DNA of 64,000 bases from Candidatus Pacearchaeota archaeon CG10_big_fil_rev_8_21_14_0_10_34_76 (GCA_002763075.1 PFDB01000010.1:6553-70552), one strand, 5' to 3'. Positions 31,373 to 47,741 are shown, counted from the first letter of the stretch. Program-made: numbers and translations. The notes: generated by a model from the letters alone, not told the origin.

Positions 31373-31603
31373 ATGAAAAAACAAAAATTATATTTATATT
31401 TTGGAATTGGAATCTTTTTAGCTCTAACTTTCTCGTACTTCATTAAAATACCCTTAAACTCTGGATCAAATTACGTCACCACAACATCTATTCTTGGATT
31501 ACTAATGTTTTATAATCCATTCATTTTAGGTGCATACATCGTTATAGCCACAATTCTCATATATAACGGGATAAAAAAACATGACTCTCAAAAATGTGAT
31601 TAA
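31373..31603 (+). CDS. small membrane protein
   Basis: 76 aa, three hydrophobic segments. TATA-like ATTTAAA (31345-31351) lies 21 nt upstream. First gene of the plus-strand redox module. Confidence 0.5.
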   Translation: MKKQKLYLYFGIGIFLALTFSYFIKIPLNSGSNYVTTTSILGLLMFYNPFILGAYIVIATILIYNGIKKHDSQKCD

Positions 31604-32150
31604 CTCTTGGAAGCTCGTTTTTAAGGATAAAAAATATATCTTTCTATCAATCATAGTGGCAATCCTTTTTTATTCTATAAATGTTCTAATAAATGGCTAT
31701 AAGACTATCTTTTCCACTTATAATCTCCTAGGAATTTCAGAAGCAATAACAATATTTTTTGCCCTATCAACAGCCCTTAGGAGTTCAATAGAACTTCACT
31801 CATTTGTTAGTCTTATTGCAACAAGTATCTTGCTTGGGACTCTAGCAAGTTTAATCTTTTATAAGATAAATGTAATGAAAGAGCATAACACCACTAAATC
31901 AGGAGCACTAGCTTCAATAGGAGTGTTTCTAGCCGCTTTGGCCCCAGGATGCGCAGTATGTGGCATTGGTCTCATATCTATTCTTGGATTGAGCGGAATC
32001 ATAGCCACATTGCTTCCATTTGACGGTCTAGAGATATCTATTTTTGCGGTAATTATATTAATTTTTGCAAATTGGAAGATATCAAAAGATTTATTAGTGT
32101 GCAAAATCAATAAAAAATACAACGAGAAGATGAAAGGAGGAATTAAATAA
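31581..32150 (+). CDS. polytopic membrane protein with an intramembrane CxxC (paralog A1)
   Basis: ~5 TM helices. ...LAALAPGCAVCGIGLISILGLSGIIATLLPFDGLEISIF... plus a distal Cys (LLVCKIN). The stop abuts the start of the DsbA-like gene. Confidence 0.7.
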   Translation: MTLKNVINSWKLVFKDKKYIFLSIIVAILFYSINVLINGYKTIFSTYNLLGISEAITIFFALSTALRSSIELHSFVSLIATSILLGTLASLIFYKINVMKEHNTTKSGALASIGVFLAALAPGCAVCGIGLISILGLSGIIATLLPFDGLEISIFAVIILIFANWKISKDLLVCKINKKYNEKMKGGIK

Positions 32151-32852
32151 ATGAGCGAAGAAAACAAAGGAACAATAACGATAAAGAAAGACACCTTATG
32201 GAAATATGCTACATTCAGCTTGCTTGGCATTATAGTTTTAGGAGCAATATTTTTCATATTGCCTGGAAACAGCCCAACAGGAAATGTAGTTGCAGATGGA
32301 GGCCAGCAGATAGTGACTGCTAAAGTCCAGATCACAGAAGCAGACCATATACTTGGAAACCCTAATGCTCCAGTGATAATTGTGGAATATTCAGACTATG
32401 AATGTCCTTTCTGTGAAAGATTCCATAGTGAGACTTTTGGCCAAATAAAAAGCCAGTATATTGATACAGGAAAAGTTGCTTTTATCTATAGGCACTTCCC
32501 ATTAAATTTCCATCCTAATGCACAGAAAGCGGCAGAAGCTTCTGAATGTGCAGCTGAGCAAGAAAAGTTCTGGGAGATGCATGAAATGCTTTTTGAATCA
32601 GGAGTTCAAGGAGGAGTCCAAACATACATTACTTATGCGACGGTACTTGGATTGAACACAGAGCAGTTTAGCGAATGTCTTAATTCAGGAAAGTATGTTT
32701 CAAGAATACAAGCAGATATGACACAAGGACAGAAAGAAAAAATATCTGGAACACCTGGATTCTTTATAGGGAAAGAAGGCAAAGATTACCAACTTGTAAG
32801 TGGAGCACAACCTTTCAATAATTTCAAGCAAGTAATAGACTCAAAGCTTTAA
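32151..32852 (+). CDS. membrane-anchored DsbA-like thiol:disulfide oxidoreductase (paralog B1)
   Basis: N-terminal TM helix, then a thioredoxin fold with active site YSDYECPFCERFH. Paralog of 40168..40914. Confidence 0.85.
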   Translation: MSEENKGTITIKKDTLWKYATFSLLGIIVLGAIFFILPGNSPTGNVVADGGQQIVTAKVQITEADHILGNPNAPVIIVEYSDYECPFCERFHSETFGQIKSQYIDTGKVAFIYRHFPLNFHPNAQKAAEASECAAEQEKFWEMHEMLFESGVQGGVQTYITYATVLGLNTEQFSECLNSGKYVSRIQADMTQGQKEKISGTPGFFIGKEGKDYQLVSGAQPFNNFKQVIDSKL

Positions 32853-32936
32853 ACATAATTTATTTTTTTATTTTTTATTCCTTATCCTTGGGAAACAAAT
32901 ATAAAGGAGAAGAAATTCATTAAAAATGTCTTAAAA

Positions 32937-33440
32937 ATGGCAAAACCAAAATGTGAAATATGTGACAGGGAATTCAAAAATCAGGAAGCTTTAGAGTTTC
33001 ACAATCAAGCAAAGCATCCTTCAAGTTCTCCACAAAAGTCAACAAAATCAATTAAGGGCTCTAAGAAAGCAATTGCATGGGCAGTTGGCCTTATTATAAT
33101 AGTTGGAATAATTGCTTTGATCATTTTTTCATCATCAGGCGCAGAAGGAAAATATGATACCTTCTCTCAATGTATCGCAAATAGTGGAGCAGTAATGTAC
33201 GGAGCTTATTGGTGTCCCCATTGTCAAGACCAAAAAGAAATGTTTGGAAAAAGTTGGGAACACGTAAACGATATCGAATGCTCTCTTCCTAACAGAGCTG
33301 GACAAACAGCAGAATGTAATGAGGCAGGCATTCAGTCTTATCCAACATGGGAATTTGCAGACGGAAGTAGGCAGACAGGCGTATTGTCATTCCAGCAACT
33401 CAGCCAATTAACTGGCTGTCCAGTTGTACAGGATGAATAA
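32937..33440 (+). CDS. C2H2 zinc finger - TM helix - thioredoxin-like (CPHC) ectodomain protein
   Basis: KCEICDREFKNQEALEFHNQAKH fits C-X2-C-X12-H-X4-H with the conserved F and L. It is followed by one TM helix (AIAWAVGLIIIVGIIALIIF) and MYGAYWCPHCQDQKEMFG ... SYPTW, which resembles the Trx-like domain fused to cyanobacterial VKOR. Confidence 0.8.
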   Translation: MAKPKCEICDREFKNQEALEFHNQAKHPSSSPQKSTKSIKGSKKAIAWAVGLIIIVGIIALIIFSSSGAEGKYDTFSQCIANSGAVMYGAYWCPHCQDQKEMFGKSWEHVNDIECSLPNRAGQTAECNEAGIQSYPTWEFADGSRQTGVLSFQQLSQLTGCPVVQDE

Positions 33441-33632
33441 ATTCTTTTAACATGAGGTTTTGTGCTTGATGAAATAGGTATTAGAAAAAGTTTTCAGGGC
33501 ATTTCAGAACCTCTTTGATTTTATCCTTGTACTTTCTTTCCAATTTATCTGACTGCTTCTTAGCCTCCAAAAATTTAGCTATTTGATTAAATCCATTTAC
33601 TCGGTAGCAAGCTGAAAAATTAGGTTCTTGAT

Positions 33633-34184
33633 TTAGTTTCTTCTACTCATAAACCACAATACAATTATTCCTAAAAATGCAGTAAATGCCATCATTGGAA
33701 TTGTAATATATCCAAATTCTGCAAAGAATGATTCAGAACACGACGCACTATATCCCAACGCAGAACAAGGAAGGTCAACAGGATTCTCAGATGTCTGGTT
33801 ATAATAATGGAATCCAGCTATCAAAAGGCCAATCACTGAAAGCATTACAAGATAAGGCATTATCCTTCTTCTTTCTTTCCTTATTAATGCCATTCCTGCT
33901 ATGAAAACCATGGGATACATAAATATTCTTTGATACCAGCATAATGTACAAGGGGCAAACTTCAATAACTCAGAAAAAATCAAGCTTCCAACCATTGCTG
34001 TCAAGGATATAATAAACATAAACAATAGTCCTCTTTTTCCAAAGAATTTCCATAATTTATCTCCAAATCTCTTTCCAGAAGCCTTGAAAATTACCCAATC
34101 TAACAGATAAGCAACTATTACAACTTGTGCTATCAATGTGAGCACTGCAAAGATTTTTATCACACTTTGATCCCAAAATACCAT
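33633..34184 (-). CDS. DsbB-family disulfide bond formation protein (BdbC type)
   Basis: PCTLCWYQRIFMYP active-site motif, a second Cys pair (CSALGYSASC), and four or five TM helices. Confidence 0.85.
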   Translation of the reverse strand: MVFWDQSVIKIFAVLTLIAQVVIVAYLLDWVIFKASGKRFGDKLWKFFGKRGLLFMFIISLTAMVGSLIFSELLKFAPCTLCWYQRIFMYPMVFIAGMALIRKERRRIMPYLVMLSVIGLLIAGFHYYNQTSENPVDLPCSALGYSASCSESFFAEFGYITIPMMAFTAFLGIIVLWFMSRRN

Positions 34185-34220
34185 ATCTCAAAAAACAAAC
34201 TAGTGTTTATAAATTATTTT

Positions 34221-34235
34221 ATGAACCTAGTTCAT
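34221..34235 (-). promoter_or_regulatory. inverted-repeat operator candidate in the DsbB-like promoter
   Basis: ATGAAC-CTA-GTTCAT (6-3-6 perfect inverted repeat). Minus-sense layout: operator - 11 nt - TTATAAA - 21 nt - ATG(34184). Confidence 0.5.
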
Positions 34236-34247
34236 GAATTATTAAGG

Positions 34248-36332
34248 CTATATTCTCGCCCTTCTCAATAAGTTTGCATTACTCACAACAGTAATACTTG
34301 AAGCAGCCATCGCAATTTCTGCCATTATGGGATGTAATAGTCCAGCAATCGCAACAGGAATAGCAACAACATTATAAGCAAATGCCCAAAACAGATTCTG
34401 TTTTATCTTCCTGAATGTAGCTTTACTCAAGTTGATTGCTTCTACAACTCCAACTAAACTTCCCTTAACAAGCACAAGATCTCCTGCCTCAATTGCAATA
34501 TCAGTTCCTGTTCCCATTGCAATACCCACATTACTTTGTTTTAGAGCAGGAGCATCGTTAACTCCATCTCCTACAAACGCAACAAATCCCTCTTTCTGCA
34601 ACCTTTCAACTTCTTTTGCCTTATCTCCTGGCAAAACATTAGCAATGACTTGAGTTATTCCAACCTGAGAAGCAATAGCCTTTGCAGTTCTTTCATTATC
34701 CCCAGTAATCATAACCGTCTTGTAACCTTTTTCATTTAACATTCTTATTGCTTGAATAGAGTCTTCTTTTACTGCATCAGAAACAGCAATCACTCCAATA
34801 ATTTTTCCAGAAGAGGAAACAATCATTGTTGTTTTCCCTTTTTCCTCAAAACCTTCAATAATTTTTTCAAAACCTTTTAATGAAATCTTTCTTTCATTCA
34901 TCAATCTAGCATTTCCAATTACTATCTTCTTTCCAGTAAGAGTTCCTTCGACACCCCTACCCCTAAGAATCTTGAAGCCTTTCACATTCCCGTGTTTCTT
35001 AAGACCTGCTTTATCAACAATTGCCTTTGCAATAGGATGTTCGCTTAACTTCTCAAGTGATGCTGCGATTTCAAGTAATTTCTTTTCTCCAATCTTAGAA
35101 TAAATATCTGTAACTTCTGGCTTTCCTTTAGTTATTGTTCCAGTCTTATCAAATACAATTGTCTTCACTTGTTTCATTGTCTGAATAGCTTCTCCCTTTC
35201 TTATCAAAATTCCTCTTTTAGCACCCATTCCGCTTCCAACCATCAATGAAATAGGCACAGCAAGCCCCAAAGAACAAGGACATGCAATAACAAGCACAGA
35301 AATTGCAACCCCAAGTGCTCTACTCAGCTCACCAGTAAAAAACCACCAATTCACAAAACTAAGCAAAGCAATTATCAATATGATTGGTACAAAAACTCCA
35401 GTAATTTTATCCGCTAATCTCTGTATAGGCACCTTTGTCCCTTGTGCTTCCTCAACAAGTTCAATAACATGAGCAAGGAAAGTGTCTTTTCCAATTTTTG
35501 TTGCTTTAACATAAAGTATTCCGTCTTGGTTTATAGTTGCTCCAATAACCTTATCTCCCTTTGTCTTATCAATAGGTAAGCTCTCTCCGGTAACCATACT
35601 TTCATCAACAGCGCTTTCTCCTTTCACAACTTCTCCATCAGTAGGAATTTTTTCTCCAGGTTTTATTATCATAACATCTCCTACTTTCACTTCAGAAATA
35701 TCAATCTCTATCTCCTCCTTTCCTCTCAGCACTCTTGCCTTTTTAGCGCCGAGTTCAAGTAATTTTTTTATTTCCTGTGAAGCTCTTCCTTTTGCCTTTG
35801 CTTCAATATATTTTCCTGTAACAAAAATGGCCATAATCATACTTGCAACTCCAGAATAATCAGCAACAAACTCAAAATAACTAAAGAACCCTGTCAAATA
35901 AGCAATGACTGTTCCAAGAGCGATAAGAGAATCCATGTTAAAATAGAATGTATAGAACCCACGTAATCCACCTCGTATAGTACTCCATCCAAAAATAAAC
36001 ACCACCGGGAAACCCAATATAAGAAGCACAGGAATCATCCAACCCATAGGCAAGATATCGATTCCAAATACTCTATCTAAAATCATTAGAATAGCAACAG
36101 GAATTGCAAATATCCAACTCCCAATCAGCTTTCTTTTCCAGCTTCGCATCTCAAGCTCTTCAACACTACTCTCTTGAACTTTAGCATGATCGGCATGTTC
36201 ATCATGAGACATTCCTTTCATATTTTCATGACTCTTCATCTTTCCATTCTTCATCCCTTTCATATCATGTCCACTCATGTCCATCCCTTCATGATGCTTA
36301 TGATCCATATTAGGACTATCTGTTTTTTTCAT
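34248..36332 (-). CDS. copA: copper-translocating P1B-type ATPase
   Basis: CPC motif ([12 protein letters not shown]), DKTGTIT, MITGDN and [10 protein letters not shown]. The N-terminus is His/Met-rich ([39 protein letters not shown]) instead of an HMA domain. Confidence 0.93.
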
Positions 36333-36334
36333 TT

Positions 36335-36793
36335 TTACAAATCTTTCCTCATCCTTAATTTATTATCACCATTTTTGTAATGATTTTTCTTAATATCAAT
36401 TACATAAAACCCAGTTTGATTGTACAAGGAGATTGCCTTAAAATTCCTTGACCAAACATTGAGCAAGATACCCTTTGAACTATTTTTCTTAGCCAAGCTT
36501 ATGACTTTTTTAATTAATAACTTGGAATATCCCTTTCCTTGAAAACCTTTTCTAACGGCCATGTTATCTAATTCGGTTTCTTTATTTTCATGAGACAGGG
36601 CAATGTAACCTATGCCAATTTTGTTATTTTCAATAATGTAAACTTCATCTTTCCATTTACTAAAAATTTTGTTAACAAGAATCCCACAATCTTTTTTGTT
36701 CTTATTCCATCTATATCCACTTTCCCACTCTATCTCTGAGATTTCATCAGCATCCTTAATTGTTGCTTTTCTTAACTTCATCTTATTCCACAC
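36335..36793 (-). CDS. GNAT family N-acetyltransferase
   Basis: [17 protein letters not shown] acetyl-CoA binding motif; ~150 aa. Confidence 0.8.
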
Positions 36794-36995
36794 TCACAAC
36801 TTTATAACCAACTTTTGCAACTGCCTTTCTCATATCTTCTTCAGATGTCTTGTCCTCACACTCAACAAAAGCCTTATTTGTCACAGCACTCACACTACAC
36901 TCCTTAACTCCAGAAACTTTTCTCAGGCTTCTCTCTATGTTACTAGCGCAGGAAGCACAGTGCATCCCACTAATTGATATTTTTACTTTTTTCAT
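36783..36995 (-). CDS. copZ: HMA-domain copper chaperone
   Basis: 70 aa with the ISGMHCASCASNIE (MxCxxC) motif. Confidence 0.9.
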   Translation of the reverse strand: MKKVKISISGMHCASCASNIERSLRKVSGVKECSVSAVTNKAFVECEDKTSEEDMRKAVAKVGYKVVSVE

Positions 36996-37014
36996 TTTGT
37001 TTTGCCTCCTTTCA

Positions 37015-37350
37015 TCATTCTTTAATTCCTAGAAGATTATACAATCCTCCCTCTAGATTCACAACATTAGTATATCCCTTTTCTAAAAGCAGACTACAAA
37101 CATACCTTGAAGCATTTCCTCTTCGGCAATAAACAAGCATTTTTGTGTTTTTATCACTAGGCAATTTATCAGCATAATCATCTAAATTATCACTCTCCAT
37201 GACTAAATCAGTCCCCTCCAAAACTTTTGGATAATCAATTGGAGCCCTTATAACAAAAACTCCTGGCTCTTTCATCAATTTAACAAATTCCTCAGGGTTC
37301 ACGGACAAGTAAGTTACTCTTCCATCTATGTTCATCATCTTTTCATTCAT
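37015..37350 (-). CDS. single-domain rhodanese-like sulfurtransferase
   Basis: Active-site loop YCRRGNASR and C-terminal NLEGGL. Confidence 0.8.
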   Translation of the reverse strand: MNEKMMNIDGRVTYLSVNPEEFVKLMKEPGVFVIRAPIDYPKVLEGTDLVMESDNLDDYADKLPSDKNTKMLVYCRRGNASRYVCSLLLEKGYTNVVNLEGGLYNLLGIKE

Positions 37351-37364
37351 ATTATTCTTAATGA

Positions 37365-37622
37365 CTACTTTCTCCTCCTGTTATTAGATGAGTTGCCTTG
37401 AAGCTGCTGAACAAGCCAAACTATCAACAAAACTAATGCAACTAAAAAAACAAGCATAAAAATCCAGCCGAATGCCATTCCTCCCCAAGAGCCCATCATT
37501 CCCCAGCCATAGTTTGAACCCATCATTCCTCCCCATCCACCAAATGGCATTATAAATAGGAAAAATGCAAGTACAATCACAAGAACTACAATCCATGTAG
37601 TGGAATTATTATTTTTCGCCAT
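37365..37622 (-). CDS. small Gly/Met/Trp-rich membrane protein
   Basis: 85 aa: TM helix, GGWGGMMGSNYGWGMMGSWGGMAFGW, TM helix. Extended SD AAGGAGGCGAT lies before the ATG. Confidence 0.65.
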   Translation of the reverse strand: MAKNNNSTTWIVVLVIVLAFFLFIMPFGGWGGMMGSNYGWGMMGSWGGMAFGWIFMLVFLVALVLLIVWLVQQLQGNSSNNRRRK

Positions 37623-38031
37623 GTTTATCGCCTCCTTTCATTGTATGTAGAATATGTATACAATTCTTAGCCATATGCTTATCAATCATGTCCATCATAG
37701 GTAAAATTGTCTTTTCATTCAACTTGTAAAATCTGAATTTTCCATCACTTTCCATTTCAACAAACCCACATTTTCTCAATCTAGAAAGATTATGACTCAC
37801 AGAAGTCTGATCCATTTTCAACTCATTCATTATTTCAGAAACATTCTTTTTTCCATCTCTCAAAAAGTTAATTATTTTTAATCTCGGCTCACTCACTAAA
37901 GTTCCAAAGAATATCTTATAAGATTCATAAAGCTCTGCTTCACTCATGTGCCCATGTTCAATGTGTTTTAACATGTCTTTACTCATCATATGATGATTTA
38001 ATACATATATAGTATTTAAACCTTTTGACAA
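37609..38031 (-). CDS. ArsR/SmtB family metalloregulator
   Basis: SEPRLKIINFLRDGKKNVSEIMNELKMDQTSVSHNLSRLRKCGFV is the ArsR-type wHTH. Confidence 0.85.
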   Translation of the reverse strand: MSKGLNTIYVLNHHMMSKDMLKHIEHGHMSEAELYESYKIFFGTLVSEPRLKIINFLRDGKKNVSEIMNELKMDQTSVSHNLSRLRKCGFVEMESDGKFRFYKLNEKTILPMMDMIDKHMAKNCIHILHTMKGGDKHGEK

Positions 38032-38046
38032 AACCAGATTATCGGA

Positions 38047-38493
38047 CTATTTCTTCAGCATCAGCAAACTTCCAAGCAAAACCAACACAACTAAAACCTG
38101 TATCTCGATACCTTGAAAAGGAAGGCTTGCAAAACTAAAAGATATTCCTATGAAAGACAATATCAAAGGAAGCAAACCAGTAATACACAATGGACAAACA
38201 CCCACAACAAGTCCTCCAATAGCTCCAACTCCAGCAACAGCACTTTCTTTTTTACACTCCTTTCTTTGCTTATATCTCATAAATGCAAGCACAGAAGTCA
38301 TAGCAACGAGAACTCCAATCATTAAAGTTAATCCCAGAGAAATCCCAAGCTTCACCCAATCAACACTTTTTGCATAAATCACAATAAGCGGAATAGTATA
38401 ATAAAACCCACTAAGGATAATATTCAAAATCAGATAAAAAATAAAAATTCCTACAACCCAGAATACATACGGCTTTCTGAACAATTCTTTCAT
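38047..38493 (-). CDS. polytopic membrane protein with an intramembrane CxxC (short paralog)
   Basis: ...GAIGGLVVGVCPLCITGLLPLILSFIGISFSFASLPFQGIEIQVL... has the same G-x-CxxC ... LPF-G-(L/I)E(I) layout as A1, A2 and A3. Confidence 0.65.
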   Translation of the reverse strand: MKELFRKPYVFWVVGIFIFYLILNIILSGFYYTIPLIVIYAKSVDWVKLGISLGLTLMIGVLVAMTSVLAFMRYKQRKECKKESAVAGVGAIGGLVVGVCPLCITGLLPLILSFIGISFSFASLPFQGIEIQVLVVLVLLGSLLMLKK

Positions 38494-38514
38494 CTTTATT
38501 TAAAATCTCACGAT

Positions 38515-39051
38515 TCATTCTTTATATATTATCTCTTGAGTTATATCAATAAATTCAAGGCATAACTTTTCTATTTTATCCAATTGCTGCTCATCCCTGA
38601 CCTTAAGATCAACTCCATAAGTATAATCCTCTCTGAGTTCAATTACACTATTTTCATGATTCATCTGCTCGTCTTCATATTTCATAAAATCTAGAATTTC
38701 TTTTTTGATATCTATTATTCCCTGCTCTTGCAGAGAGTCTATTAAAGTTATTGTGCAAGTCTGATTTTTCGATTCGTATCCAAATTTTGCTGTAATAGAC
38801 AAAAAACAGTGATATAATGAATAAAATCCTACACCCATAGCTAAATCCGAGAAATCATTCTCTCTTAAAAGTCTAAACCCTTTAAGAAAATGTCTGGCCT
38901 TATCCACGTGCTGAAATGCAAGGTTTTTGTCAGGGTTTATTTTAAGCAATCCTCTGTGACGAGGTTTTTTGTTTTGTTTTTCAGATTCATTGAGTTCCCT
39001 CTCTGCTTTTCTCAAACACCATTCAATTTTTTTAGAAACTTGTGAATCCAT
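38515..39051 (-). CDS. HEPN domain protein
   Basis: The helical pattern HVDKARHFLKGFRLLRENDFSDLAMGVGFYSLYHCFLSITAKFG is typical of HEPN. It overlaps the upstream MNT gene by 20 nt. Confidence 0.6.
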   Translation of the reverse strand: MDSQVSKKIEWCLRKAERELNESEKQNKKPRHRGLLKINPDKNLAFQHVDKARHFLKGFRLLRENDFSDLAMGVGFYSLYHCFLSITAKFGYESKNQTCTITLIDSLQEQGIIDIKKEILDFMKYEDEQMNHENSVIELREDYTYGVDLKVRDEQQLDKIEKLCLEFIDITQEIIYKE

Positions 39052-39622
39052 TCATTATCTCCATATAATTATCATAGCCACATAAAATAATTCCTGTTCT
39101 AATTATCTCCAATATTGCTTTATTATTACTTCTTAAATTTCTTATAAAATCATGTTTTGTTGATTTGATTGCATGAATCTTTTTTGGCAAAACGGCCTGT
39201 ATTTCCTCCAACTTGACATTTACTTCCTTAAATTCTCCTTCCTTAAGGATAATCATAATATCTATATCTTTGGCCTGTGCGTAATTTCTGCTGGCAGATC
39301 CATAAAATAAAATTATCCTTCCCTTTTTACATAAATTTTTGAATTCATTTCTCCATCGATCATGTTTCCCTGCCTCATTTACAAACGCAAATCCCATTAG
39401 TTTCTGTGCCAACTCGTCATATATATCGATTTTATAGATAATTGATTTTCCAATTTGTTTACTTGCCAGAAGGCCAGCTTTTTCGAGCCTTTTCAAGATT
39501 TTCATTGCACCAACCTGAGTTATTTCCAATTTTTTGCTAAGGGAATTTGCATTATAAAAATTAGTAAAATCTTTATAAATTATAATTAAAGCTTCCTGCT
39601 CTTTTCTTGTTAACTCTATCAT
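39032..39622 (-). CDS. wHTH plus minimal nucleotidyltransferase (MNT) protein
   Basis: wHTH (LSKKLEITQVGAMKILKRLEKAGLL) followed by ILFYGSASRNYAQAKDIDIMIIL (GS..DxD). Confidence 0.75.
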   Translation of the reverse strand: MIELTRKEQEALIIIYKDFTNFYNANSLSKKLEITQVGAMKILKRLEKAGLLASKQIGKSIIYKIDIYDELAQKLMGFAFVNEAGKHDRWRNEFKNLCKKGRIILFYGSASRNYAQAKDIDIMIILKEGEFKEVNVKLEEIQAVLPKKIHAIKSTKHDFIRNLRSNNKAILEIIRTGIILCGYDNYMEIMNGFTSF

Positions 39623-39696
39623 CTTAACTTAAAATTATGATATAATAACTTATAGTTAGTTTATAAACCTTTATGGTTTAAATAATGAAGAATTTA

Positions 39697-40089
39697 TCAC
39701 TTAACATTCAACTTTCCAAAACCCATTCCCATAGTGCATGAGAAAGTGTAACTTCCTTTCTTAAGTGCAGGCAATTCCAAAACATCTGATTCTGATTGAA
39801 GATATTTAGAATATTTTTTCCCATCAAAATTAAAAACAACTGACCTTAAACATCCTCTAACTGATGAATCAGCACTCAACGAAATTGGCTGTCCAGCTTT
39901 CACTTCAACATCTTCATAATTGAAACCATCCTGACTAAGAACAACTTTCTGAGTCTGACCATCCAGAGCGTTTTCACCTTCATTGATAACATTTCCAGTC
40001 ACTCCTTTGCTTCCTGCATTAACAAATACGAAACCTCCAACTAAGATAATCATTACTCCTATGCCCATTAAAATCATTGAATTTTTCAT
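39697..40089 (-). CDS. membrane-anchored cupredoxin-like protein
   Basis: N-terminal TM helix. The C-terminal GSYTFSCTMGMGFGKLNV plus upstream Cys is the Cupredoxin_1-type copper-site pattern. Confidence 0.7.
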   Translation of the reverse strand: MKNSMILMGIGVMIILVGGFVFVNAGSKGVTGNVINEGENALDGQTQKVVLSQDGFNYEDVEVKAGQPISLSADSSVRGCLRSVVFNFDGKKYSKYLQSESDVLELPALKKGSYTFSCTMGMGFGKLNVK

Positions 40090-40110
40090 ATTTCTTCTAG
40101 TGAAAATGCC

Positions 40111-40137
40111 TTTTTAAGCTCTTCGATGAGACTAGTC
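40111..40137 (-). promoter_or_regulatory. TATA plus GACTAGTC operator module (cupredoxin promoter)
   Basis: Minus sense: GACTAGTC (40130-40137) - 12 nt - TTAAAAA (40111-40117) - 21 nt - ATG(40089). Confidence 0.6.
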
Positions 40138-40167
40138 AAATAAAAAATAAAAAATAAAAAAACATGT

Positions 40168-40914
40168 TTAGGCTAGTTCAGCGTCAATGATTTGCTTAAA
40201 TACAGAGTAGGGTTGTGCTCCCGAAAGGGGCTTTCCATTGATGAAAAATCCTGGAGTGCCCTGCACACCATAACTGCTCCCATCATTAAGGTCTTTTTGC
40301 ACCTCGCTTCTAAACTTCCCAGAATCAAGACAAGTATCTATATCATATCCAACATCATTTGCCCATTTCTTCAGATCCTCATTTGTGAAACTAACTGTGC
40401 TTCTAACTGGACCAGTATTTGCATCTCCTCCATCAAGGATATTTCCTTCTTGGAAAATTTTGTCATGCATCTTGAAATATGCTTCATCACCACCTTGTTC
40501 CATCACACAATTTGCTGCTTCTGCAGCAGGTGTTGCAGCAGAATGGATGCTATCAAGAGGAAAATCTCTGTAAACAAACCTTACTTTACCTGTATCTATA
40601 TATTCTGATTTTAGTAATGGAAATGTTTCTGTCCAGAACTTTCTACAGAATGGACACTGATAATCAGAAAACTCTATTATTTCAACAGGAGCATTCTCCT
40701 CCCCTAAAACAGGATCGTCATCTGCGCTTACTTCAACTCGAGAAGGTTGAGTAGGCAAGGTTGGAGCATTATTCTCACCAGTGTTCTCCCTTAGGCCTCC
40801 ATCATTTCCTGTAAAAAAGAATATGGCTCCTATAACCAATACAGCCAAAAGCAAAAGTGTGCTATATTTCCATAATGCATCTTTTCTTATAGTTATTGTT
40901 TTTTCTTCACTCAT
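40168..40914 (-). CDS. membrane-anchored DsbA-like thiol:disulfide oxidoreductase (paralog B2)
   Basis: FSDYQCPFCRKFW active site. The N-terminus MSEEKTITIRKDALWKY matches MSEENKGTITIKKDTLWKY of B1. Confidence 0.85.
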   Translation of the reverse strand: MSEEKTITIRKDALWKYSTLLLLAVLVIGAIFFFTGNDGGLRENTGENNAPTLPTQPSRVEVSADDDPVLGEENAPVEIIEFSDYQCPFCRKFWTETFPLLKSEYIDTGKVRFVYRDFPLDSIHSAATPAAEAANCVMEQGGDEAYFKMHDKIFQEGNILDGGDANTGPVRSTVSFTNEDLKKWANDVGYDIDTCLDSGKFRSEVQKDLNDGSSYGVQGTPGFFINGKPLSGAQPYSVFKQIIDAELA

Positions 40915-41483
40915 TTTAACCTCCTTTCACTTTTGTAAAAATTAATCTCACAAGTACCTGCTGAACTCATATCCTCGCTTATTTTCATAATTGAGAAAAA
41001 GAGAATTCCTATAGCTAAAAGTGAGATCTCAAGCCCCCCAAGAGGAAGAAAGACTAAGAAAGCAGAACTCAATCCAAATAAAGATAATGATCCAACTCCG
41101 CATGCAGCGCATCCTGGAGCAATCATTCCCAAAAAAATTCCTCCAACCACAAAAACCCCTGATTTCCCAGAGGTTGTTTTTATGATTAATGTTTTATAAG
41201 TTATCAAACTAAAAAGCATACCAAATAAAACACTAATAATGAGCAAGCTCATGTAAGAGCTAAGTTTTAATGTGGCTCCAAAACCAATTACTAAACTAAA
41301 AAATAAGTTGATTGTTTTTAAAAATCCAAACTCTGGGTAAAAAGAAAAAAGAATTTTCCAGTTGCTTATCACAACATTCACTAAATAAAAAAAAACAGCC
41401 AGGGTTGTTGTTAATAATGGGTATTTCCAATTCATAAAAACTTCTTTCCATGTCTTAATTATTTTATTTATCTTCATTTTCAC
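40911..41483 (-). CDS. polytopic membrane protein with an intramembrane CxxC (paralog A2)
   Basis: ...LGMIAPGCAACGVGSLSLFGLSSAFLVFLPLGGLEISLL... plus a distal Cys (GTCEINF). 4-nt overlaps with both neighbouring genes. Confidence 0.7.
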   Translation of the reverse strand: MKMKINKIIKTWKEVFMNWKYPLLTTTLAVFFYLVNVVISNWKILFSFYPEFGFLKTINLFFSLVIGFGATLKLSSYMSLLIISVLFGMLFSLITYKTLIIKTTSGKSGVFVVGGIFLGMIAPGCAACGVGSLSLFGLSSAFLVFLPLGGLEISLLAIGILFFSIMKISEDMSSAGTCEINFYKSERRLK

Positions 41484-42112
41484 CTGGATGTGTACTCTAT
41501 TAAGATTTCATCTTTATCTTTCATGACGTAATTCTCAAATTCGTTGTTTTCAACACCATTGACATGCATCTTTAATTCTCCATTATCTGTACAGTACTCG
41601 AATATACATTTTGAACTGAATTGTTTGTCCCAAACATAAAAGAAATACCCCAAGGTGAGAGTTTCAGGCTTAGAACTTGGATTATTATTTTCTAAATGAA
41701 TAGTTCCATCTGTTTCATGAGTATGAGTTGGAGACATTCTCATTCCGCTTAAGGAAGTATCAACAATCTTGCCAACGCTCAACCCTATGTCTGTAGAGAT
41801 AGGAATTGTTTCCCCATCAACTTTGATTGTTATTCTTGGATGCCAGTGCACCGCTCCAGAAGGAATAGTGATTTCCCTGCCCCCGAGATCTACATTAAGG
41901 TCTTTCACATTTCTTTCAGGGATTAGTGCTATTACTCCAAAAATTATTAACCCAATGACTACAATAAAAATTGTCAAGTTCCTCATTTTTTTAACAGGCA
42001 ATCTTTTTTTATCCTTAGGCAAAATTTCAGAATGCTTTGCATTATTGTGCGCAATTAAACCCTCAGTGTTCTTGAATACCCTACCACAGACCCCACATGT
42101 TTTCTTCACCAT
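41480..42112 (-). CDS. C2H2 zinc finger - TM helix - His-rich ectodomain protein
   Basis: TCGVCGRVFKNTEGLIAHNNAKH (C-X2-C-X12-H-X4-H), one TM helix, then an ectodomain with HWHP and SPTHTHETDGTIH. Confidence 0.75.
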   Translation of the reverse strand: MVKKTCGVCGRVFKNTEGLIAHNNAKHSEILPKDKKRLPVKKMRNLTIFIVVIGLIIFGVIALIPERNVKDLNVDLGGREITIPSGAVHWHPRITIKVDGETIPISTDIGLSVGKIVDTSLSGMRMSPTHTHETDGTIHLENNNPSSKPETLTLGYFFYVWDKQFSSKCIFEYCTDNGELKMHVNGVENNEFENYVMKDKDEILIEYTSR

Positions 42113-42223
42113 TTTATTATATTATAATTAAAAAGCTATAATACTTTACTATCTGAACAATACCTCTTAAAATGGCTAAAAAGCTCAAATTTGGTCATTT
42201 TAACGTTCATAAGACCATTTTGA

Positions 42224-42721
42224 CTAGAATTTTAAGAATACCTCTAGGGTTTTTCCTTTCTGAATCCTTTTTACAAGCCCTCTTCTTTCAAGCTCTTGAA
42301 GAACATAACTTAATTTAGCCTTAGACATATCAGTTCTTATTCTCAATGTTGATTGTGTGATTCCAGGTTGTTCTCTTATTGCCTTCACAATTTTTTGTTC
42401 GAATGGATCAAGAGCCTTTAATAAAATAGAAAACTTCATATCTTCAATTTTTTCATCCCTCTCTTTTTCAAGTCTTTCAAGGATTGCTTTTTCAGTTTTA
42501 TTAAAAAAGAGAAGATAAAATCCAAGTGCTATTATAAAGGAAAATATCCCTATCGCTATATGTGAAACAGACAAACCCCTTTCAAGTTCAAGACATCCTG
42601 GCTGATTAAAACACCCCATCTCATTTGATTGCTCTGATAAATTCAAGGAATAATAAACAAACATCCCCCCAACAATCAATCCAATAACAATTAAAAGCAC
42701 ACCCAGTTTTTTATTTTCCAT
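42224..42721 (-). CDS. membrane-anchored wHTH regulator with an extracytoplasmic Cys pair (sensor paralog 1)
   Basis: TM1, loop NEMGCFNQPGCLE, TM2, then a cytoplasmic wHTH (ITQSTLRIRTDMSKAKLSYVLQELERRGLVKR). Confidence 0.75.
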   Translation of the reverse strand: MENKKLGVLLIVIGLIVGGMFVYYSLNLSEQSNEMGCFNQPGCLELERGLSVSHIAIGIFSFIIALGFYLLFFNKTEKAILERLEKERDEKIEDMKFSILLKALDPFEQKIVKAIREQPGITQSTLRIRTDMSKAKLSYVLQELERRGLVKRIQKGKTLEVFLKF

Positions 42722-42764
42722 GATAATTGGGGGAATTAATATTTTAAAAATATATCTTATTCCA

Positions 42765-43028
42765 TTATTTCATCTTATTGTATATTGTAGCAAACAGCCA
42801 TCCAACAATCCATGCCAATACTACTATCTCAACAAGTCCAATAATCCCGCTTACTATTGAAACATTTGGGTTTGTTATCTTGCTAATATCCAATCCATGG
42901 AAAAGATATCCAAATAAACTCATTGTAGCTTCTGGAATAACAATTATCAACACGACGCACACAATAAATACTATTCCTGAAACAATTGCTAGCGAATTCG
43001 CCACATTTTTTGTATTTAATTTATCCAT
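42765..43028 (-). CDS. small two-TM membrane protein
   Basis: Start set to the ATG preceded by AAAGGAGGTGAGAAA (SD, 7-nt spacer). The listed MKGGEK extension is read-through of the SD. Confidence 0.6.
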   Translation of the reverse strand: MDKLNTKNVANSLAIVSGIVFIVCVVLIIVIPEATMSLFGYLFHGLDISKITNPNVSIVSGIIGLVEIVVLAWIVGWLFATIYNKMK

Positions 43029-43060
43029 TTTCTCACCTCCTTTCATAACTAAACATCAGA

Positions 43061-43579
43061 TTACTTTAATCTTATCTTGCAAGCTCCTTCCACAGATTTC
43101 CCTGTCAGATATATAGATACCATCAAAATAAAAATTCCAAGAACCTGTATCTCTAGTCCTCTAAAAGGAAAATACATCAATGCTAAAGGCATTCCAACAA
43201 GCCCAAAGAGGAATGCTCCACATGTTGGGCATCCAACTCCAAAAGCAGCAATTCCCGAGCCAATAAATCCAACTATTCCCTTTCCTTCCATTTTTTTATA
43301 ATTCTCAAACTTAAAGAAAATCATTGACATCAAAATTCCAGATAATACAGCAGTCACTATAATACTCGCCACACTAAATGTTATAAAAGCAGTCCCAGAC
43401 ATCATCACAGATATCCAGATGCTGTTATCAGCCACCTTAGCAACTAAAAAATAATACAAAATACCAAAAATCGCAATTCCTACTAACGAAGCTATTAACT
43501 TATACTTTCTACTACTCAACACTTCCCCAACAATAACAAATGTGTTGCCACATTCATCTTTTAGATTCATCCCAAACAC
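43061..43579 (-). CDS. polytopic membrane protein with an intramembrane CxxC (paralog A3)
   Basis: ...GSGIAAFGVGCPTCGAFLFGLVGMPLALMYFPFRGLEIQVL... plus a distal Cys (GACKIRL). Confidence 0.7.
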   Translation of the reverse strand: MFGMNLKDECGNTFVIVGEVLSSRKYKLIASLVGIAIFGILYYFLVAKVADNSIWISVMMSGTAFITFSVASIIVTAVLSGILMSMIFFKFENYKKMEGKGIVGFIGSGIAAFGVGCPTCGAFLFGLVGMPLALMYFPFRGLEIQVLGIFILMVSIYLTGKSVEGACKIRLK

Positions 43580-43785
43580 TCCGCATATATATTAGGATGA
43601 TGGCTCATATGTTCTCTCCAGCTTTCTTCGGTGTATCCTGGTTGAACATTACATTTTTCATTCCCAGAACTTCCAGCATCACTAATTGCATAGATTATCC
43701 CAGGAAATAAGGTAAGCAACAATAACCCGATCGAGACAATCCCTAAAACTATGTATAATATTATTTTTTTATTCATTAATGGCAT
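43567..43785 (-). CDS. small membrane-anchored protein with a Cys/His motif
   Basis: 72 aa: TM helix followed by CNVQPGYTEESWREHMSHHPNIYAEC. Confidence 0.5.
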   Translation of the reverse strand: MPLMNKKIILYIVLGIVSIGLLLLTLFPGIIYAISDAGSSGNEKCNVQPGYTEESWREHMSHHPNIYAECLG

Positions 43786-44255
43786 TTTCCTCCTTTCAAT
43801 ACGTTATTCATTTTTCTCCTATGATTTACCATAACAATTATTCCAAGAACATTAGATAATATTCCAATAGTCAATATCTCTGACTGATATTGAGCAAGAA
43901 AAACAGCCAACCCAGATAAACCTATAATTGGAATCACATTAAGAAGAAAATGACTACAACACGCAACCATACTTCCCGCAGAAAGAGTTCCAGTTCCTGC
44001 AACAGTTGCATTCACTCCGGCACTATGCCTTATTGATGTAAAAAGCCCGACTTGTATCCCAAATCCCCCAGCAAGAGGAATGATAAAATACCACAAGCTC
44101 CTCAAACTAAAAAATGCAAAAGCAACTCCTTGGAAAATGCTTATAACGCCTAAGTAAAATAGAACAAGTCCAATTCCTGCTAACAATCCATACAAAATTG
44201 CATTACTTTTTCTACTATTTTTTACATATCTCATGTTATTCCATACAGCATTCAA
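43776..44255 (-). CDS. polytopic membrane protein with a vicinal CC (divergent member of the CxxC family)
   Basis: ...GTLSAGSMVACCSHFLLNVIPIIGLSGLAVFLAQYQSEIL... is colinear with the CxxC..GLSG..LP..E segment of A1-A3. Confidence 0.6.
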   Translation of the reverse strand: MNAVWNNMRYVKNSRKSNAILYGLLAGIGLVLFYLGVISIFQGVAFAFFSLRSLWYFIIPLAGGFGIQVGLFTSIRHSAGVNATVAGTGTLSAGSMVACCSHFLLNVIPIIGLSGLAVFLAQYQSEILTIGILSNVLGIIVMVNHRRKMNNVLKGGKCH

Positions 44256-44727
44256 GAAGTTTTTTTACAGATGCAAAAACACTCTTTTTTTCATTGCTAC
44301 TTCCCATATTTATTTTCCCTGATTTCTTAAGATTAGAATCAATGTTCAATTTCCAAAACATTCCATACAGCTCTGCAGAATCTTTATACATTTCATCTGC
44401 CTCTTTCTCCTTTCCATCATGCAAAAGTCTGTTTCCTGTTTCAAATAATCTCATACTACTTGCCAGAAAGTGCTTGCTCATGCACCATTTCTCTCCTCCA
44501 TCATCATCTCTCACAATCAACTTCAAAAGTTTCTTTCTCAACTCTCTTACATTTTCAAGCATCTCAAGATATTTTTTGTCTTCTGTCTTCACATAACTAA
44601 AGAAACAATGCTCTTCCAAGGAGACAAGATTCATTATTCCAATAGAAAGATCTTCCCATGCAGATATATCTAACTCTTTCTTTCCCTTCACTTCTTCAAT
44701 CTTTTTCACAAAGTTATCAATTTTCAT
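44236..44727 (-). CDS. cytoplasmic helical protein with a Cys-rich C-terminus
   Basis: 163 aa with no TM helix. Cys at EEHCFF and KWCMSKH, and a terminal LLECCME. Confidence 0.55.
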   Translation of the reverse strand: MKIDNFVKKIEEVKGKKELDISAWEDLSIGIMNLVSLEEHCFFSYVKTEDKKYLEMLENVRELRKKLLKLIVRDDDGGEKWCMSKHFLASSMRLFETGNRLLHDGKEKEADEMYKDSAELYGMFWKLNIDSNLKKSGKINMGSSNEKKSVFASVKKLLECCME

Positions 44728-44728
44728 A

Positions 44729-45265
44729 TTATATTATTACAAACTGGATTAATAATGAGGAGATTATAAGCAACGCAAATGTCACAATAAGTCCTTGGAA
44801 TGGAATTCCTTTTCCATTTCTCTTTTCTTTTATCTTCCTACTCAATGAAGGAGAGACAAATACTATTACTCCTCCAAATAAACTACTTATCAAAGAGTAG
44901 TCAATAGCATAAGTTATTCCATATTCTCCTAAGAATGGTAAATACAATGGCCCTAAAGCACTAAATATTGGCATCAATGGCAATACAGTAAGAACAAACA
45001 CGCCCACAATTATCAACGTCTTCTGAAATGGAATATATCTTTTTTTTACAATTCTAGCAAACCACATCCCCATAGACATAGCAAAAGCCCCGATGAAAAG
45101 TGCTACGATTACCTTGCTGACTCCAAGCCAAACAGCTCCTGCAGCAGCAGCCCCTGCTCCAATAGTGCAAAGAGGACAATGCGCATATACACTTTCGGCC
45201 AGCATCAGAATAAATACAGGCATAGCAAACAGCCAAACCATCCACTTGTTGAATATTTTTTTCAT
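44729..45265 (-). CDS. polytopic membrane protein with an N-terminal HCPLC motif
   Basis: Signal-like helix, then AHCPLCTIGAGAAAAGAVWLG and four further TM helices. First gene of a seven-gene minus-strand operon. Confidence 0.65.
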   Translation of the reverse strand: MKKIFNKWMVWLFAMPVFILMLAESVYAHCPLCTIGAGAAAAGAVWLGVSKVIVALFIGAFAMSMGMWFARIVKKRYIPFQKTLIIVGVFVLTVLPLMPIFSALGPLYLPFLGEYGITYAIDYSLISSLFGGVIVFVSPSLSRKIKEKRNGKGIPFQGLIVTFALLIISSLLIQFVII

Positions 45266-46257: not shown

Positions 46258-46740
46258 TTAAATCCTCATCCACTCTCTAAAAGTCCCGTCGTTTTGAACA
46301 GCATATATAACGAAATCTCCTGATTTTGTTCCAGGCATTCCAGGGCTTCCATTCGGCATTCCAGGCATTGCAATTCCCTTTATGTCAGGTTTTTCTGTAA
46401 GAAGTTTCTCTACAGCTTCTAAAGGTATATGTCCCTCAATAAAATAATTTCCAATTATCGTTGTATGACAACTTTCCATTTGCGAAGGTATCTCATATTT
46501 TGCCTTTAAGGTTGAAAGACTTTCAAGATTGACAACTTCCACATCAGAGTTCCCCTTTCTTTGGAAATAATTAACAAAGACTCCACAACATCCACAGCTC
46601 CCCGTCTTGTATATTGTCATCTCGCCATCATATTCGCCTAACGAAGGATATCCGCTTGCTTTATTACTTCCAAATACAATAAACAAAGCAACCACTATTA
46701 TGATTACTCCTACTCCAACTATTATTGTTTTCTTTTTCAT
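46258..46740 (-). CDS. DUF411 (CopG-like) metal-binding protein, membrane-anchored
   Basis: SCGCCGVFVNYF, ESCHTT and IEGHIP motifs, with a Met/Pro-rich GMPNGSPGMPG segment. Confidence 0.75.
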   Translation of the reverse strand: MKKKTIIVGVGVIIIVVALFIVFGSNKASGYPSLGEYDGEMTIYKTGSCGCCGVFVNYFQRKGNSDVEVVNLESLSTLKAKYEIPSQMESCHTTIIGNYFIEGHIPLEAVEKLLTEKPDIKGIAMPGMPNGSPGMPGTKSGDFVIYAVQNDGTFREWMRI

Positions 46741-46747
46741 ATTTTAA

Positions 46748-46984
46748 TTAGCATCCTCCGACCATTGTAGATGCAGCACTCTGAGCAGCACTTCCTGTGC
46801 TTTGTGCAACACCAACAGAGCCTCCTATTCCTGCTTGGAATGTCATGAATAAAGCTATCAAAAACAATGCTCCAATCACAATCCACAAAACTATTCTTTT
46901 ATCCATTTTGATTATAAATCCTCCTTTCATTTTGTTTTCCCCTTCAGAGTTTTCTGAATTTGAAATATTACTGCAACAATCCAT
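46748..46984 (-). CDS. small membrane-anchored peptide ending in MVGGC
   Basis: Start uncertain: ATG at 46906 (MDKRIV..., 52 aa) or the ATG inside ATGAAAGGAGG. One TM helix; the last 20 nt of coding sequence plus stop are identical to 47055-47074. Confidence 0.5.
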   Translation of the reverse strand: MDCCSNISNSENSEGENKMKGGFIIKMDKRIVLWIVIGALFLIALFMTFQAGIGGSVGVAQSTGSAAQSAASTMVGGC

Positions 46985-47054
46985 TATTTTTCCTCCTTAA
47001 AGGATGGATAAAAGGAAAGGAATGCTAAGTCATAAAAAAATAAAAATTTACTCA

Positions 47055-47741
47055 TTAGCATCCTCCGACCATTGCTCCTCCAGAAGAGCTTTGTCCTTTC
47101 TCTATCCCTCTGTATAGATTAGATGCAAGATTGATATAATCAGTGCTATCTATTCCATTAGCTTCTAACACTTGTGCTTTCTGCTCATGAATCCCTGGGA
47201 AGAATAGAACTTTCCACTTCCCTAATTCCCTAAGTATATCTGCATCGCTCATTTCAGGATTGTTTATCAAAAGATACTTTGCAAGACCCCTCATTGCATA
47301 GCTATGTGCACATCCACAAGCCCTCTCCCCATTTGAGAAGATAATTGATTCAGCACCACAACAATACTCACAAGAGATTGATCCTGCAATCATTATATAT
47401 CTCTCAAGTTGTTCAGCATTCAACTGCAAGTCTTCGTATTCAGAAAGCTTTGCAATTGTAGCATCCGCAAGCCTTGGATTATTTGGAGATACATCATCGT
47501 AGCTAATCCCCATACTTGCTCCATATACTGCAGGGATTCCCTCAGGTATTATTTCTGAAGCAGAAACTGTCCCAACACCTGTAGCAAGTCCTGTAGGCCC
47601 AATAGATGAATAAACCTTTCCTGTATTAAATACAATTACTAATGCAAGAATAGCTATTATTCCTATTTGGACATAAAGCTCTGTCTTTCCGGAGCTGGTC
47701 GATCCTCCTTTCATTTCATTCTCACTTTCGTGTTTTTCCAT
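47055..47741 (-). CDS. membrane-anchored Cys-rich protein ending in MVGGC
   Basis: TM helix, then an ectodomain with SCEYCCGAESIIFSNGERACGCAHSYAMRGL and C-terminal GGAMVGGC. Confidence 0.65.
   Translation of the reverse strand: MEKHESENEMKGGSTSSGKTELYVQIGIIAILALVIVFNTGKVYSSIGPTGLATGVGTVSASEIIPEGIPAVYGASMGISYDDVSPNNPRLADATIAKLSEYEDLQLNAEQLERYIMIAGSISCEYCCGAESIIFSNGERACGCAHSYAMRGLAKYLLINNPEMSDADILRELGKWKVLFFPGIHEQKAQVLEANGIDSTDYINLASNLYRGIEKGQSSSGGAMVGGC

Follow-up and report, generated by a model that had tools for sequence, protein, structure and literature searches.

A family of small CxxC membrane proteins encoded beside DsbA-like and copper-handling genes in DPANN archaea: a possible membrane thiol relay

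A stretch of 64,000 nucleotides from Candidatus Pacearchaeota archaeon CG10_big_fil_rev_8_21_14_0_10_34_76 (GCA_002763075.1, PFDB01000010.1:6553-70552; "the window" in the following) carries, between positions 31,581 and 45,265, six genes for polytopic membrane proteins with cysteine motifs. They are found among genes for DsbA-like, thioredoxin-like and copper-handling proteins. The locus raises the question of whether these six proteins form a family, and of what their cysteines could do for the products of the neighbouring genes. A first-pass annotation of the window had described them as a single family of six members, either a thiol-lined metal conduit resembling the mercury transporters or a redox partner of the DsbB/VKOR kind. 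The six open reading frames (ORFs) that it had named were all present at their coordinates, and are called here A to F in the order of their positions (Table 1). The name A–D family is used for the family made of A, B, C and D together with their homologues, and residue numbers are those of A.

All-against-all BLASTP comparisons joined four of the six proteins. A and C shared 40% identity (7e-37), and matches were also obtained between A and D (2e-10), B and D (1e-5), and B and A (2e-5). E only reached an E-value of about 0.5 against A and B, and F matched none of the other five. A hidden Markov model (HMM) of the family, built from 124 sequences, scored D at 212 bits, A at 172, C at 169 and B at 120, whereas E and F obtained negative bits even with the search space reduced to one sequence (Z=1). 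By profile–profile alignment (hhalign), the probability of a relationship with the A–D family was 0.6% for the family of E and at most 8% for F, in the latter case over 13–15 columns corresponding to the CxxC motif alone. The motif common to A, B, C and D occupies the C-terminal part of the proteins and consists of a Gly-rich helix, the string G-C-x-x-C-G, then G(L/M)(S/P) and LPFxG(L/I)E(I/L). The combination of the Gly-rich helix, GCxxC, G136, LPFxG(L/I)E and a third Cys on the cytoplasmic side, used as a test of membership, was present in A to D and absent from E and F.

Judged from these comparisons of sequences, A, B, C and D are true paralogues, and the family has four members in the window, not six. 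E and F are placed outside because of their negative HMM scores, their low hhalign probabilities, and the fact that each belongs to a conserved family of its own with different invariant residues. The earlier view, in which all six share a homologous Cys hairpin, has become very improbable. It is true that all are polytopic membrane proteins with Cys motifs inside one 14-kb island, and that the helix order in an AlphaFold2 (AF2) model of E is loosely similar; at the level of sequence profiles the six-member family is refuted, and the shared hairpin stands for A to D only.

The family extends far beyond the window. A word-indexed search with the alignment of A to D found 295 homologues (after clustering at 90%), all unnamed or "hypothetical", and those that were labelled belonged to Pacearchaeota or Nanoarchaeota. 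A HMMER search against 1.84 billion cluster representatives (50% identity) returned 2088 sequences at E <= 1e-3, of which 1156 at E <= 1e-10. The scan of one genome per GTDB species, with the alignment of the subtype of A and C (type I, described below) as the query, gave 76 loci. These were nearly all labelled Pacearchaeota, Woesearchaeota, Nanoarchaeota or plain archaeon, and one came from Undinarchaeales. The A–D family is almost confined to DPANN archaea. Two type I loci (L056 and L057) originated from metagenome-assembled genomes labelled Patescibacteria or Paceibacteria; they showed the same layout as the DPANN loci, with a MarR gene with transmembrane (TM) segments, the family gene and a DsbA (or DsbB) gene. 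Their labels could result from misbinning or from gene transfer between bacteria of the candidate phyla radiation and DPANN archaea.

No characterised family could be assigned to these proteins in the first-pass annotation, and this was borne out by Pfam, NCBIfam, PDB sequences and PDB folds, none of which provided a match. For the six window proteins, the matches in Pfam and NCBIfam did not rise above noise (Ndc1, COX14, EI24, MFS, and Patched at 8e-4). When 124 members were scanned, 38 Pfam families were matched, and among the 25 listed were Vma12 in 14 members (best 7e-5), MgtE in four and MerT in two, all taken as noise from hydrophobic hairpins; MerC, MerF, DsbB, VKOR and DsbD were not among these 25. 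The family profile found 0 matches at E <= 10 against all PDB sequences, which include MerF. Foldseek searches of the PDB found no match at E < 4 with the AF2 model of A, and the best match for the models of A and E was not below E = 1.5. The literature that was searched contained no mention of the family. The A–D family is real, large, lineage-restricted and unannotated. Its scaffold is new, and the kind of system is already known, namely a Cys protein of the membrane that has a thioredoxin-fold partner in the periplasm.

Conservation was evaluated on 271 sequences, of which 147 each represented a different 50%-identity cluster. The two cysteines of the CxxC motif, C124 and C127, were found in 271/271, so that the pair singled out by the first-pass annotation is kept in every homologue of this set. 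P146 and G149 were each present in 269/269, E151 in 267/269 and G136 in 268/270. The third Cys, which belongs to the tail or to a loop on the cytoplasmic side, was present in 266 of the 268 sequences counted.

Clustering separated three subtypes, which hhalign connected to each other with a probability of 97%. Type I (A and C; about 186 aa) is characterised by APGCA(A/V)CG ... LPFDGLE(I/L)S, type II (D; about 168 aa) by GVGCPTCGAFLFGL.GMPLAL.YLPF(R/K)GLE(L/I)Q, and type III (B; about 150 aa) by GVCPLCITGL ... LPFQGIEIQ. In types I and II the third Cys is located about six residues past the last helix (CKI or CEI). Type III is devoid of this tail Cys and possesses instead an invariant Cys in the Lys-rich loop right before the Gly-rich helix. 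The downstream Cys that had been described as usual is accordingly seen in A, C and D, and replaced by the loop Cys in B.

The distribution of charges provides an indication of the topology. In A, the Lys and Arg residues are clustered at the N-terminus, in the loop 95–107 and in the tail past K169, and following the positive-inside rule these three segments would be cytoplasmic. The Gly-rich helix (residues 108–123 of A) would then rise outward from the Lys-rich cytoplasmic loop and end in the CxxC. As C124 and C127 are 16–19 residues away from the cytoplasmic start of this helix, and E151 is 17 residues ahead of the cytoplasmic end of the last helix, the CxxC and E151 are expected at a similar depth near the outer face. 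The hairpin would be composed of the CxxC, two short helices (carrying G136 and P146), the last TM helix starting with G149 and E151, and the Lys-rich cytoplasmic tail, and both positions of the third Cys would be at its cytoplasmic mouth. A cytoplasmic C-terminus is also supported by natural fusions, in which the family tail runs directly into the Lys-rich N-terminal side of a DsbA anchor. The C-terminal hairpin is preceded by three further helices. The AF2 model of A, calculated from the 124-sequence alignment, was a helical bundle (mean predicted local distance difference test, pLDDT, of 79.7; predicted template modelling score of 0.71). A break between two helices fell at C124, and the helix that follows had C127 in its first turn. 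This would be the usual geometry of an active CxxC, modelled here with a low local confidence (pLDDT of about 54).

Each subtype adjoins its own extracytoplasmic Cys protein: a DsbA-like protein for type I, a cupredoxin for type III and the DUF411 (CopG-like) operon for type II. The assignments of the cop and DsbA neighbours made in the first-pass annotation were upheld by Pfam. For type I, the coupling of two members to DsbA-like genes was also confirmed: the stop codon of A (32148–32150) abuts the ATG of the first DsbA-like gene at 32151, with a GGAGG within the last codons of A, and C overlaps the second DsbA-like gene in an ATGA with a GGAGG upstream. Among the species-representative loci, a DsbA-like gene was situated within 300 nt downstream on the same strand for 49/75 type I genes (six more were at contig ends), or 49/69 when counted over the evaluable loci, and within 1.5 kb for 64/75. 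The active site of the partner was CPFC in 44/49. In the 31 well-flanked type I loci, defined by at least 5 kb on each side, a DsbA-like gene was found in 29, any copper-island gene in 11 and a DsbB gene in five. In-frame fusions of the family protein with DsbA (417–442 aa) occurred in three different 50%-identity clusters. One of them was checked on a TARA contig, where the ORF was continuous and the stop codon absent, with the internal Shine–Dalgarno sequence and ATG kept. The association with DsbA is conserved across about 70 species-level genomes, and the fusions strengthen it.

Other genes recurred around type I. A marine relative with 47% identity possessed the same type I–DsbA pair beside peptidyl-prolyl isomerase (PPIase), DoxX and cupredoxin genes. 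On the marine TARA contigs L001–L004, the pair was seen beside PPIase, DoxX, iron superoxide dismutase, COX2-like cupredoxin and SUF genes, a setting that recalls the mycobacterial DoxX/SodA/rhodanese thiol-stress complex. Genes of the Zf210 type, coupled to the type I genes, were found in 20/76 type I loci, and a membrane-anchored winged helix-turn-helix (wHTH) regulator (DUF7343/MarR) flanked the family genes in 26/76. The WCPHC thioredoxin-like protein encoded beside DsbB in the window also recurred beside DsbB in other loci (L012, L049 and L048/L050), the two genes overlapping in L049.

Type III was sampled in 80 metagenome loci. A Cupredoxin_1 gene was directly upstream in 54 of the 69 evaluable loci and an ArsR gene directly downstream in 32 of 62. 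Within 4.5 kb downstream, the 25 evaluable loci contained ArsR (19 loci), HMA (16), CopA (16) and sm85 (15). The window keeps this gene order, with the insertion of the nucleotidyltransferase pair that splits the cupredoxin gene from B. The gene sm85 is located between the ArsR gene and the rhodanese/HMA/CopA genes; the loop of its product reads GGWGGMMGSNYGWGMMGSWGGM and may be a Met-rich Cu(I) site. Type II is the last gene of a tightly packed operon of eight genes, in the order p228, p78, DUF411, F, p163, E, sm72 and type II (D). This operon was seen in the window, in three other loci (L084–L086) and in many further ones. In L084–L086 a gene of about 69 aa, at the position of sm72, was directly upstream of type II. 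For ten further pairs of type II and E-family genes, the longest contigs carrying the two genes were of equal length, which suggests that each pair is on one shared contig. Multicopper oxidase genes were also observed among the neighbours in the copper operons of types II and III. Types II and III belong to conserved copper operons, and type I accompanies copper-island genes in the 11 of 31 loci given above.

Our preferred, though still tentative, proposal is that the A–D family constitutes a new membrane thiol relay serving these adjacent partners, probably in the reducing direction, like DsbD and ScsB. It is founded on the invariant CxxC and Glu near the outer face combined with a conserved Cys on the cytoplasmic side, and on the near-obligate pairing of type I with a membrane-anchored CPFC DsbA-like protein, including the fusions; in addition, every subtype has an extracytoplasmic partner with cysteines encoded next to it. 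An invariant buried acid by the CxxC is typical of thiol-disulfide enzymes (Asp26 in thioredoxin, Glu24 in DsbA). In this model, thiol exchange would take place between the outer CxxC and the two cysteines of the anchored extracytoplasmic neighbour, which would be the CPFC DsbA-like protein for type I, the Cys/Cys/Met cupredoxin for type III and the small Cys proteins of the DUF411 operon for type II. Cytoplasmic thiols would keep the cysteines of the partner reduced under copper or oxidative stress, and the neighbouring pair of DsbB and CPHC-thioredoxin would be the oxidising arm. The existence of the family, its conserved residues, the pairing of the genes and the fusions are established by the analysis; the topology and the thiol exchange with the partner are inferred, and the direction is the weakest inference of the three. 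The reducing direction is favoured because an oxidase has no use for the conserved cytoplasmic Cys, because a separate DsbB and CPHC-thioredoxin pair in the same neighbourhoods can oxidise, and because copper stress produces a demand for disulfide reduction and isomerisation in the envelope (PMC10907172). In copper defence, the DsbA-like protein ScsC is reduced by the membrane protein ScsB (PMC10907172).

Several points weigh against a reducing relay. With the topology described above, the whole thickness of the bilayer separates the outer CxxC from the cytoplasmic Cys, and this single Cys could accommodate two electrons only if the protein formed a dimer. The confidence of the AF2 model is lowest precisely around the CxxC (residues 121–150, pLDDT 54–67). 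The oxidases DsbB and VKOR also have a CxxC where a TM helix reaches the outer side, and the presence of types II and III in copper operons with HMA, CopA and DUF411 would fit a metal hand-off equally. The two options of the first-pass annotation, a redox partner and a metal conduit, remain the two leading hypotheses.

The redox partner could in principle work in the other direction, as an analogue of DsbB or VKOR which re-oxidises the co-encoded DsbA-like protein and delivers the electrons to a lipophilic or other acceptor. The pairing and the fusions with DsbA match the known DsbB–DsbA and VKOR–Trx pairs, and the CxxC would be located, as in these oxidases, at the outer end of a TM helix. 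Since DsbB was nearby in only five of the 31 well-flanked type I loci, many DsbA-like genes are left without an obvious local oxidase. We nevertheless consider such an oxidase improbable. The outer side lacks a second (shuttle) Cys pair, and the conserved cytoplasmic Cys would have no role. A DsbB gene is present in the window, and in L013 and L018 it belongs to the same gene string as the family–DsbA pair. Nor are DPANN archaea known to synthesise quinones. Similarity of sequence or fold was equally lacking: hhalign gave 0.2% against an 11-sequence DsbB (PF02600) alignment, and neither VKOR (PF07884) nor DsbD/CcdA (PF02683, PF13386) appeared among the Pfam families listed or the PDB-sequence and Foldseek matches. 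Neither CcdA nor VKOR was found among the remaining membrane ORFs of the 64-kb window. A kinship with DsbB or VKOR was thus not confirmed.

The copper operons bring forward the metal conduit. A Mer-like relay would transfer Cu(I) (or Hg(II)) from the neighbouring extracytoplasmic Cys protein to the outer CxxC, then through the membrane to the Cys on the cytoplasmic side, and from there to HMA, ArsR and CopA; alternatively, the path would be the reverse and load outer cuproproteins. Transport by the Mer proteins depends on the two cysteines of their first TM helix (PMC5715351). The architecture of the A–D family parallels that of MerT, MerF, MerC and MerE, in that the first hairpin helix carries a Cys pair and the cytoplasmic Cys is variable in position (PMC5715351). 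The conserved operons of types II and III with cupredoxin, ArsR, HMA, CopA, DUF411 and multicopper oxidase genes speak for this relay, as do the two Pfam matches to MerT, which were weak (E = 0.002). We regard it as unlikely, although deserving of attention. The family has a single cytoplasmic Cys and not a pair, its invariant Glu is not a typical ligand of Cu(I) or Hg(II), and type I is associated more stably with DsbA (29/31) than with copper genes (11/31). The genes merR, merP and merA were absent from the window and from the loci with Pfam gene tables, MerA having been looked for in those loci and not in all.

The resemblance to MerT and MerF pointed out in the first-pass annotation did not hold as homology. 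The six window proteins had no Pfam match to MerT (PF02411), MerF (PF11431) or MerC (PF03203), no Mer family appeared among the PDB-sequence or fold matches, and hhalign against genuine Mer sequences gave 0.2% for MerT and 2.3% for MerF. A higher value was obtained with a 110-sequence MerC alignment (28% for type I, with CAAC aligned on CAAC, and 3.5% for the whole family). Reversed MerC scored above true MerC, at 53% for type I and 37% for the whole family, the column-shuffled controls being at 3.3% or less, and homology with MerC was rejected. As the CAAC string is palindromic and lies in a Gly/Ala-rich helix, the signal is no evidence of descent. The probability left by the reducing relay, the oxidase and the metal relay goes to other roles, for example a sensor or a subunit of a complex.

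The features of the window that surround the family are collected in Table 1.

Table 1. Genes of the A–D family and neighbouring features, with positions counted from the first nucleotide of the window.
Feature	Coordinates	Strand	Basis
A: A–D family, type I, 189 aa, APGCAVCG ... LPFDGLEIS ... CKI	31581..32150	+	HMM 172 bits; type I cluster
DsbA-like protein 1, membrane-anchored, CPFC, translationally coupled to A	32151..32852	+	Pfam Thioredoxin_4 1e-33, DSBA 3e-17
Membrane-anchored thioredoxin-like protein (WCPHC), N-terminal C2H2 zinc finger, probable DsbB partner	32937..33440	+	Pfam Thioredoxin, zf-C2H2
DsbB homologue	33633..34184	-	Pfam DsbB 3e-17
CopA-type P1B ATPase, CPC motif, His/Met-rich N-terminus	34248..36332	-	Pfam E1-E2_ATPase, Hydrolase; sequence read
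HMA metallochaperone (MHCASC)	36783..36995	-	Pfam HMA 2.5e-12
Rhodanese-domain protein	37015..37350	-	Pfam Rhodanese 1e-8
sm85: two-TM protein, Gly/Met/Trp-rich loop, 85 aa	37365..37622	-	sequence
ArsR/SmtB-type regulator	37609..38031	-	Pfam HTH_5 2.6e-14
B: A–D family, type III, 148 aa, GVCPLCITGL ... LPFQGIEIQ, third Cys = C80 in cytoplasmic loop	38047..38493	-	HMM 120 bits; type III cluster
Nucleotidyltransferase (Polbeta) and HEPN-like partner, inserted pair	38515..39622		Pfam scan
Cupredoxin_1 protein, conserved Cys, Cys, Met	39697..40089	-	Pfam Cupredoxin_1 1e-7
DsbA-like protein 2 (CPFC), translationally coupled to C	40168..40914	-	Pfam Thioredoxin_4 1e-36; ATGA overlap
C: A–D family, type I, 190 aa	40911..41483	-	HMM 169 bits; 40% identity to A
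Zf210: cytoplasmic C2H2 zinc finger, TM and His-rich outer domain; overlaps C start	41480..42112	-	Pfam zf-C2H2, weak
Membrane-anchored wHTH regulator (DUF7343/MarR), Cys pair in outer loop	42224..42721	-	Pfam
D: A–D family, type II, 172 aa, GVGCPTCGAFLFGL ... FPFRGLEIQ ... CKI	43061..43579	-	HMM 212 bits; type II cluster
sm72: anchored small protein, 2 conserved Cys and HH; overlaps D start	43567..43785	-	conservation
E: strongly conserved membrane family of its own, invariant ACCSH	43776..44255	-	hhalign 0.6% vs A–D family; own homologues
p163: soluble Cys-containing protein, same operon as D, E, F	44236..44727	-	conservation; synteny in L084–L086
F: separate membrane family, invariant AHCPLCT after signal-like segment	44729..45265	-	negative HMM score; conservation
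DUF411 (CopG-like) protein, CGCC	46258..46740	-	Pfam DUF411 6e-25
p78 (46748..46984) and p228 (47055..47741): first genes of type II operon	46748..47741	-	conservation; synteny

The window is AT-rich (about 34% GC). An intron-containing tRNA with a span of 152 nt was detected by Rfam at 27593–27744 and missed by ARAGORN; this long intron fits an archaeal origin. The window encodes three paralogues of the membrane-anchored wHTH regulator (DUF7343/MarR), the one listed in Table 1 and two others at 49826–50314 and 58573–59046. Each begins with two TM segments and has a pair of cysteines in the outer loop, and they may be sensors of the redox state or of metals in the envelope. Two anchored extracytoplasmic proteins, the WCPHC thioredoxin-like protein and Zf210, both carry an N-terminal cytoplasmic C2H2 zinc finger.

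The Cys motifs recognised in E and F at first pass are real. ACCSH was invariant in 101 homologues of E, and AHCPLCT in 11 homologues of F. At least 406 homologues of E were found at 60–90% identity, some of them named "Cu+-exporting ATPase" by JGI, and its true start is probably the ATG at 44234. The family of E had no match in Pfam, PDB sequences or PDB folds (the last by Foldseek with the AF2 model), and F had none in Pfam. E and F are fixed members of the DUF411 operon and share it with D, to which they appear, from the profiles, to be unrelated. In the same operon, p78 and p228 share an invariant MVGGC at their C-terminus. The protein p228 also contains the invariant motifs SCEYCCG and ACGCAH and had no Pfam match.

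Few membrane families are known that join the interior of the cell to extracytoplasmic thiol chemistry, namely DsbB, VKOR and DsbD/CcdA/ScsB. A large unannotated family, coupled or fused to DsbA, would add another to this set. A broader and even more tentative suggestion than the relay itself is that the A–D family represents a further class of membrane cysteine relay, structurally unrelated to DsbB, VKOR and DsbD/CcdA, which would have arisen in DPANN archaea and radiated into three partner-specific subtypes. If this were true, quinone-poor episymbionts with reduced genomes would use it to link cytoplasmic thiols to the extracytoplasmic chemistry of disulfides and copper. This would help to explain how both are handled at the DPANN surface, which is the place of interaction with hosts, despite tiny genomes and no quinone synthesis known to us. 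The pairing rules (type I with DsbA, type III with the cupredoxin, type II with the DUF411 operon) make the function cheaply testable. The analysis also brought out E and F as representatives of two additional unannotated membrane families with Cys motifs, together with an operon of eight genes, conserved and linked to copper, in which no gene has an assigned function.

Among the known systems, MerT, MerF, MerC and MerE share with the A–D family a hairpin, a Gly/Ala-rich first helix with a Cys pair, and a cytoplasmic Cys in a loop or tail, as well as a periplasmic CxxC partner and a context of metal-resistance genes; type I even shares the GCAAC string with MerC. They differ in that the hairpin of the A–D family is C-terminal, with a single cytoplasmic Cys in the place of the Mer pair, invariant Glu and Pro residues, and no mer genes nearby. 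DsbB, which has a four-helix fold with two outer Cys pairs, and VKOR, which has a Cys pair in a loop and a CxxC at TM4, are similar by the adjacency of a DsbA-like gene, the occasional fusion, and the position of the CxxC where a TM helix reaches the outer side. The A–D family differs from them by the lack of a second outer Cys pair and of evidence for a quinone site, and a true DsbB coexists with it in the window. DsbD/CcdA and ScsB have no similarity of sequence or fold to the A–D family. In DsbD/CcdA one Cys is found in each of two inverted repeats, within a core of six TM helices, whereas the A–D family has a CxxC in one helix and a distant cytoplasmic Cys; it is also far smaller (150–190 aa) and without the alpha or gamma periplasmic domains of DsbD. 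What DsbD/CcdA and ScsB have in common with the A–D family is the general plan: a membrane protein with cysteines, essential in the known ones, which is encoded with a DsbA-like or thioredoxin-fold partner, is associated with copper stress, and apparently links the cytoplasmic and outer faces of the membrane.

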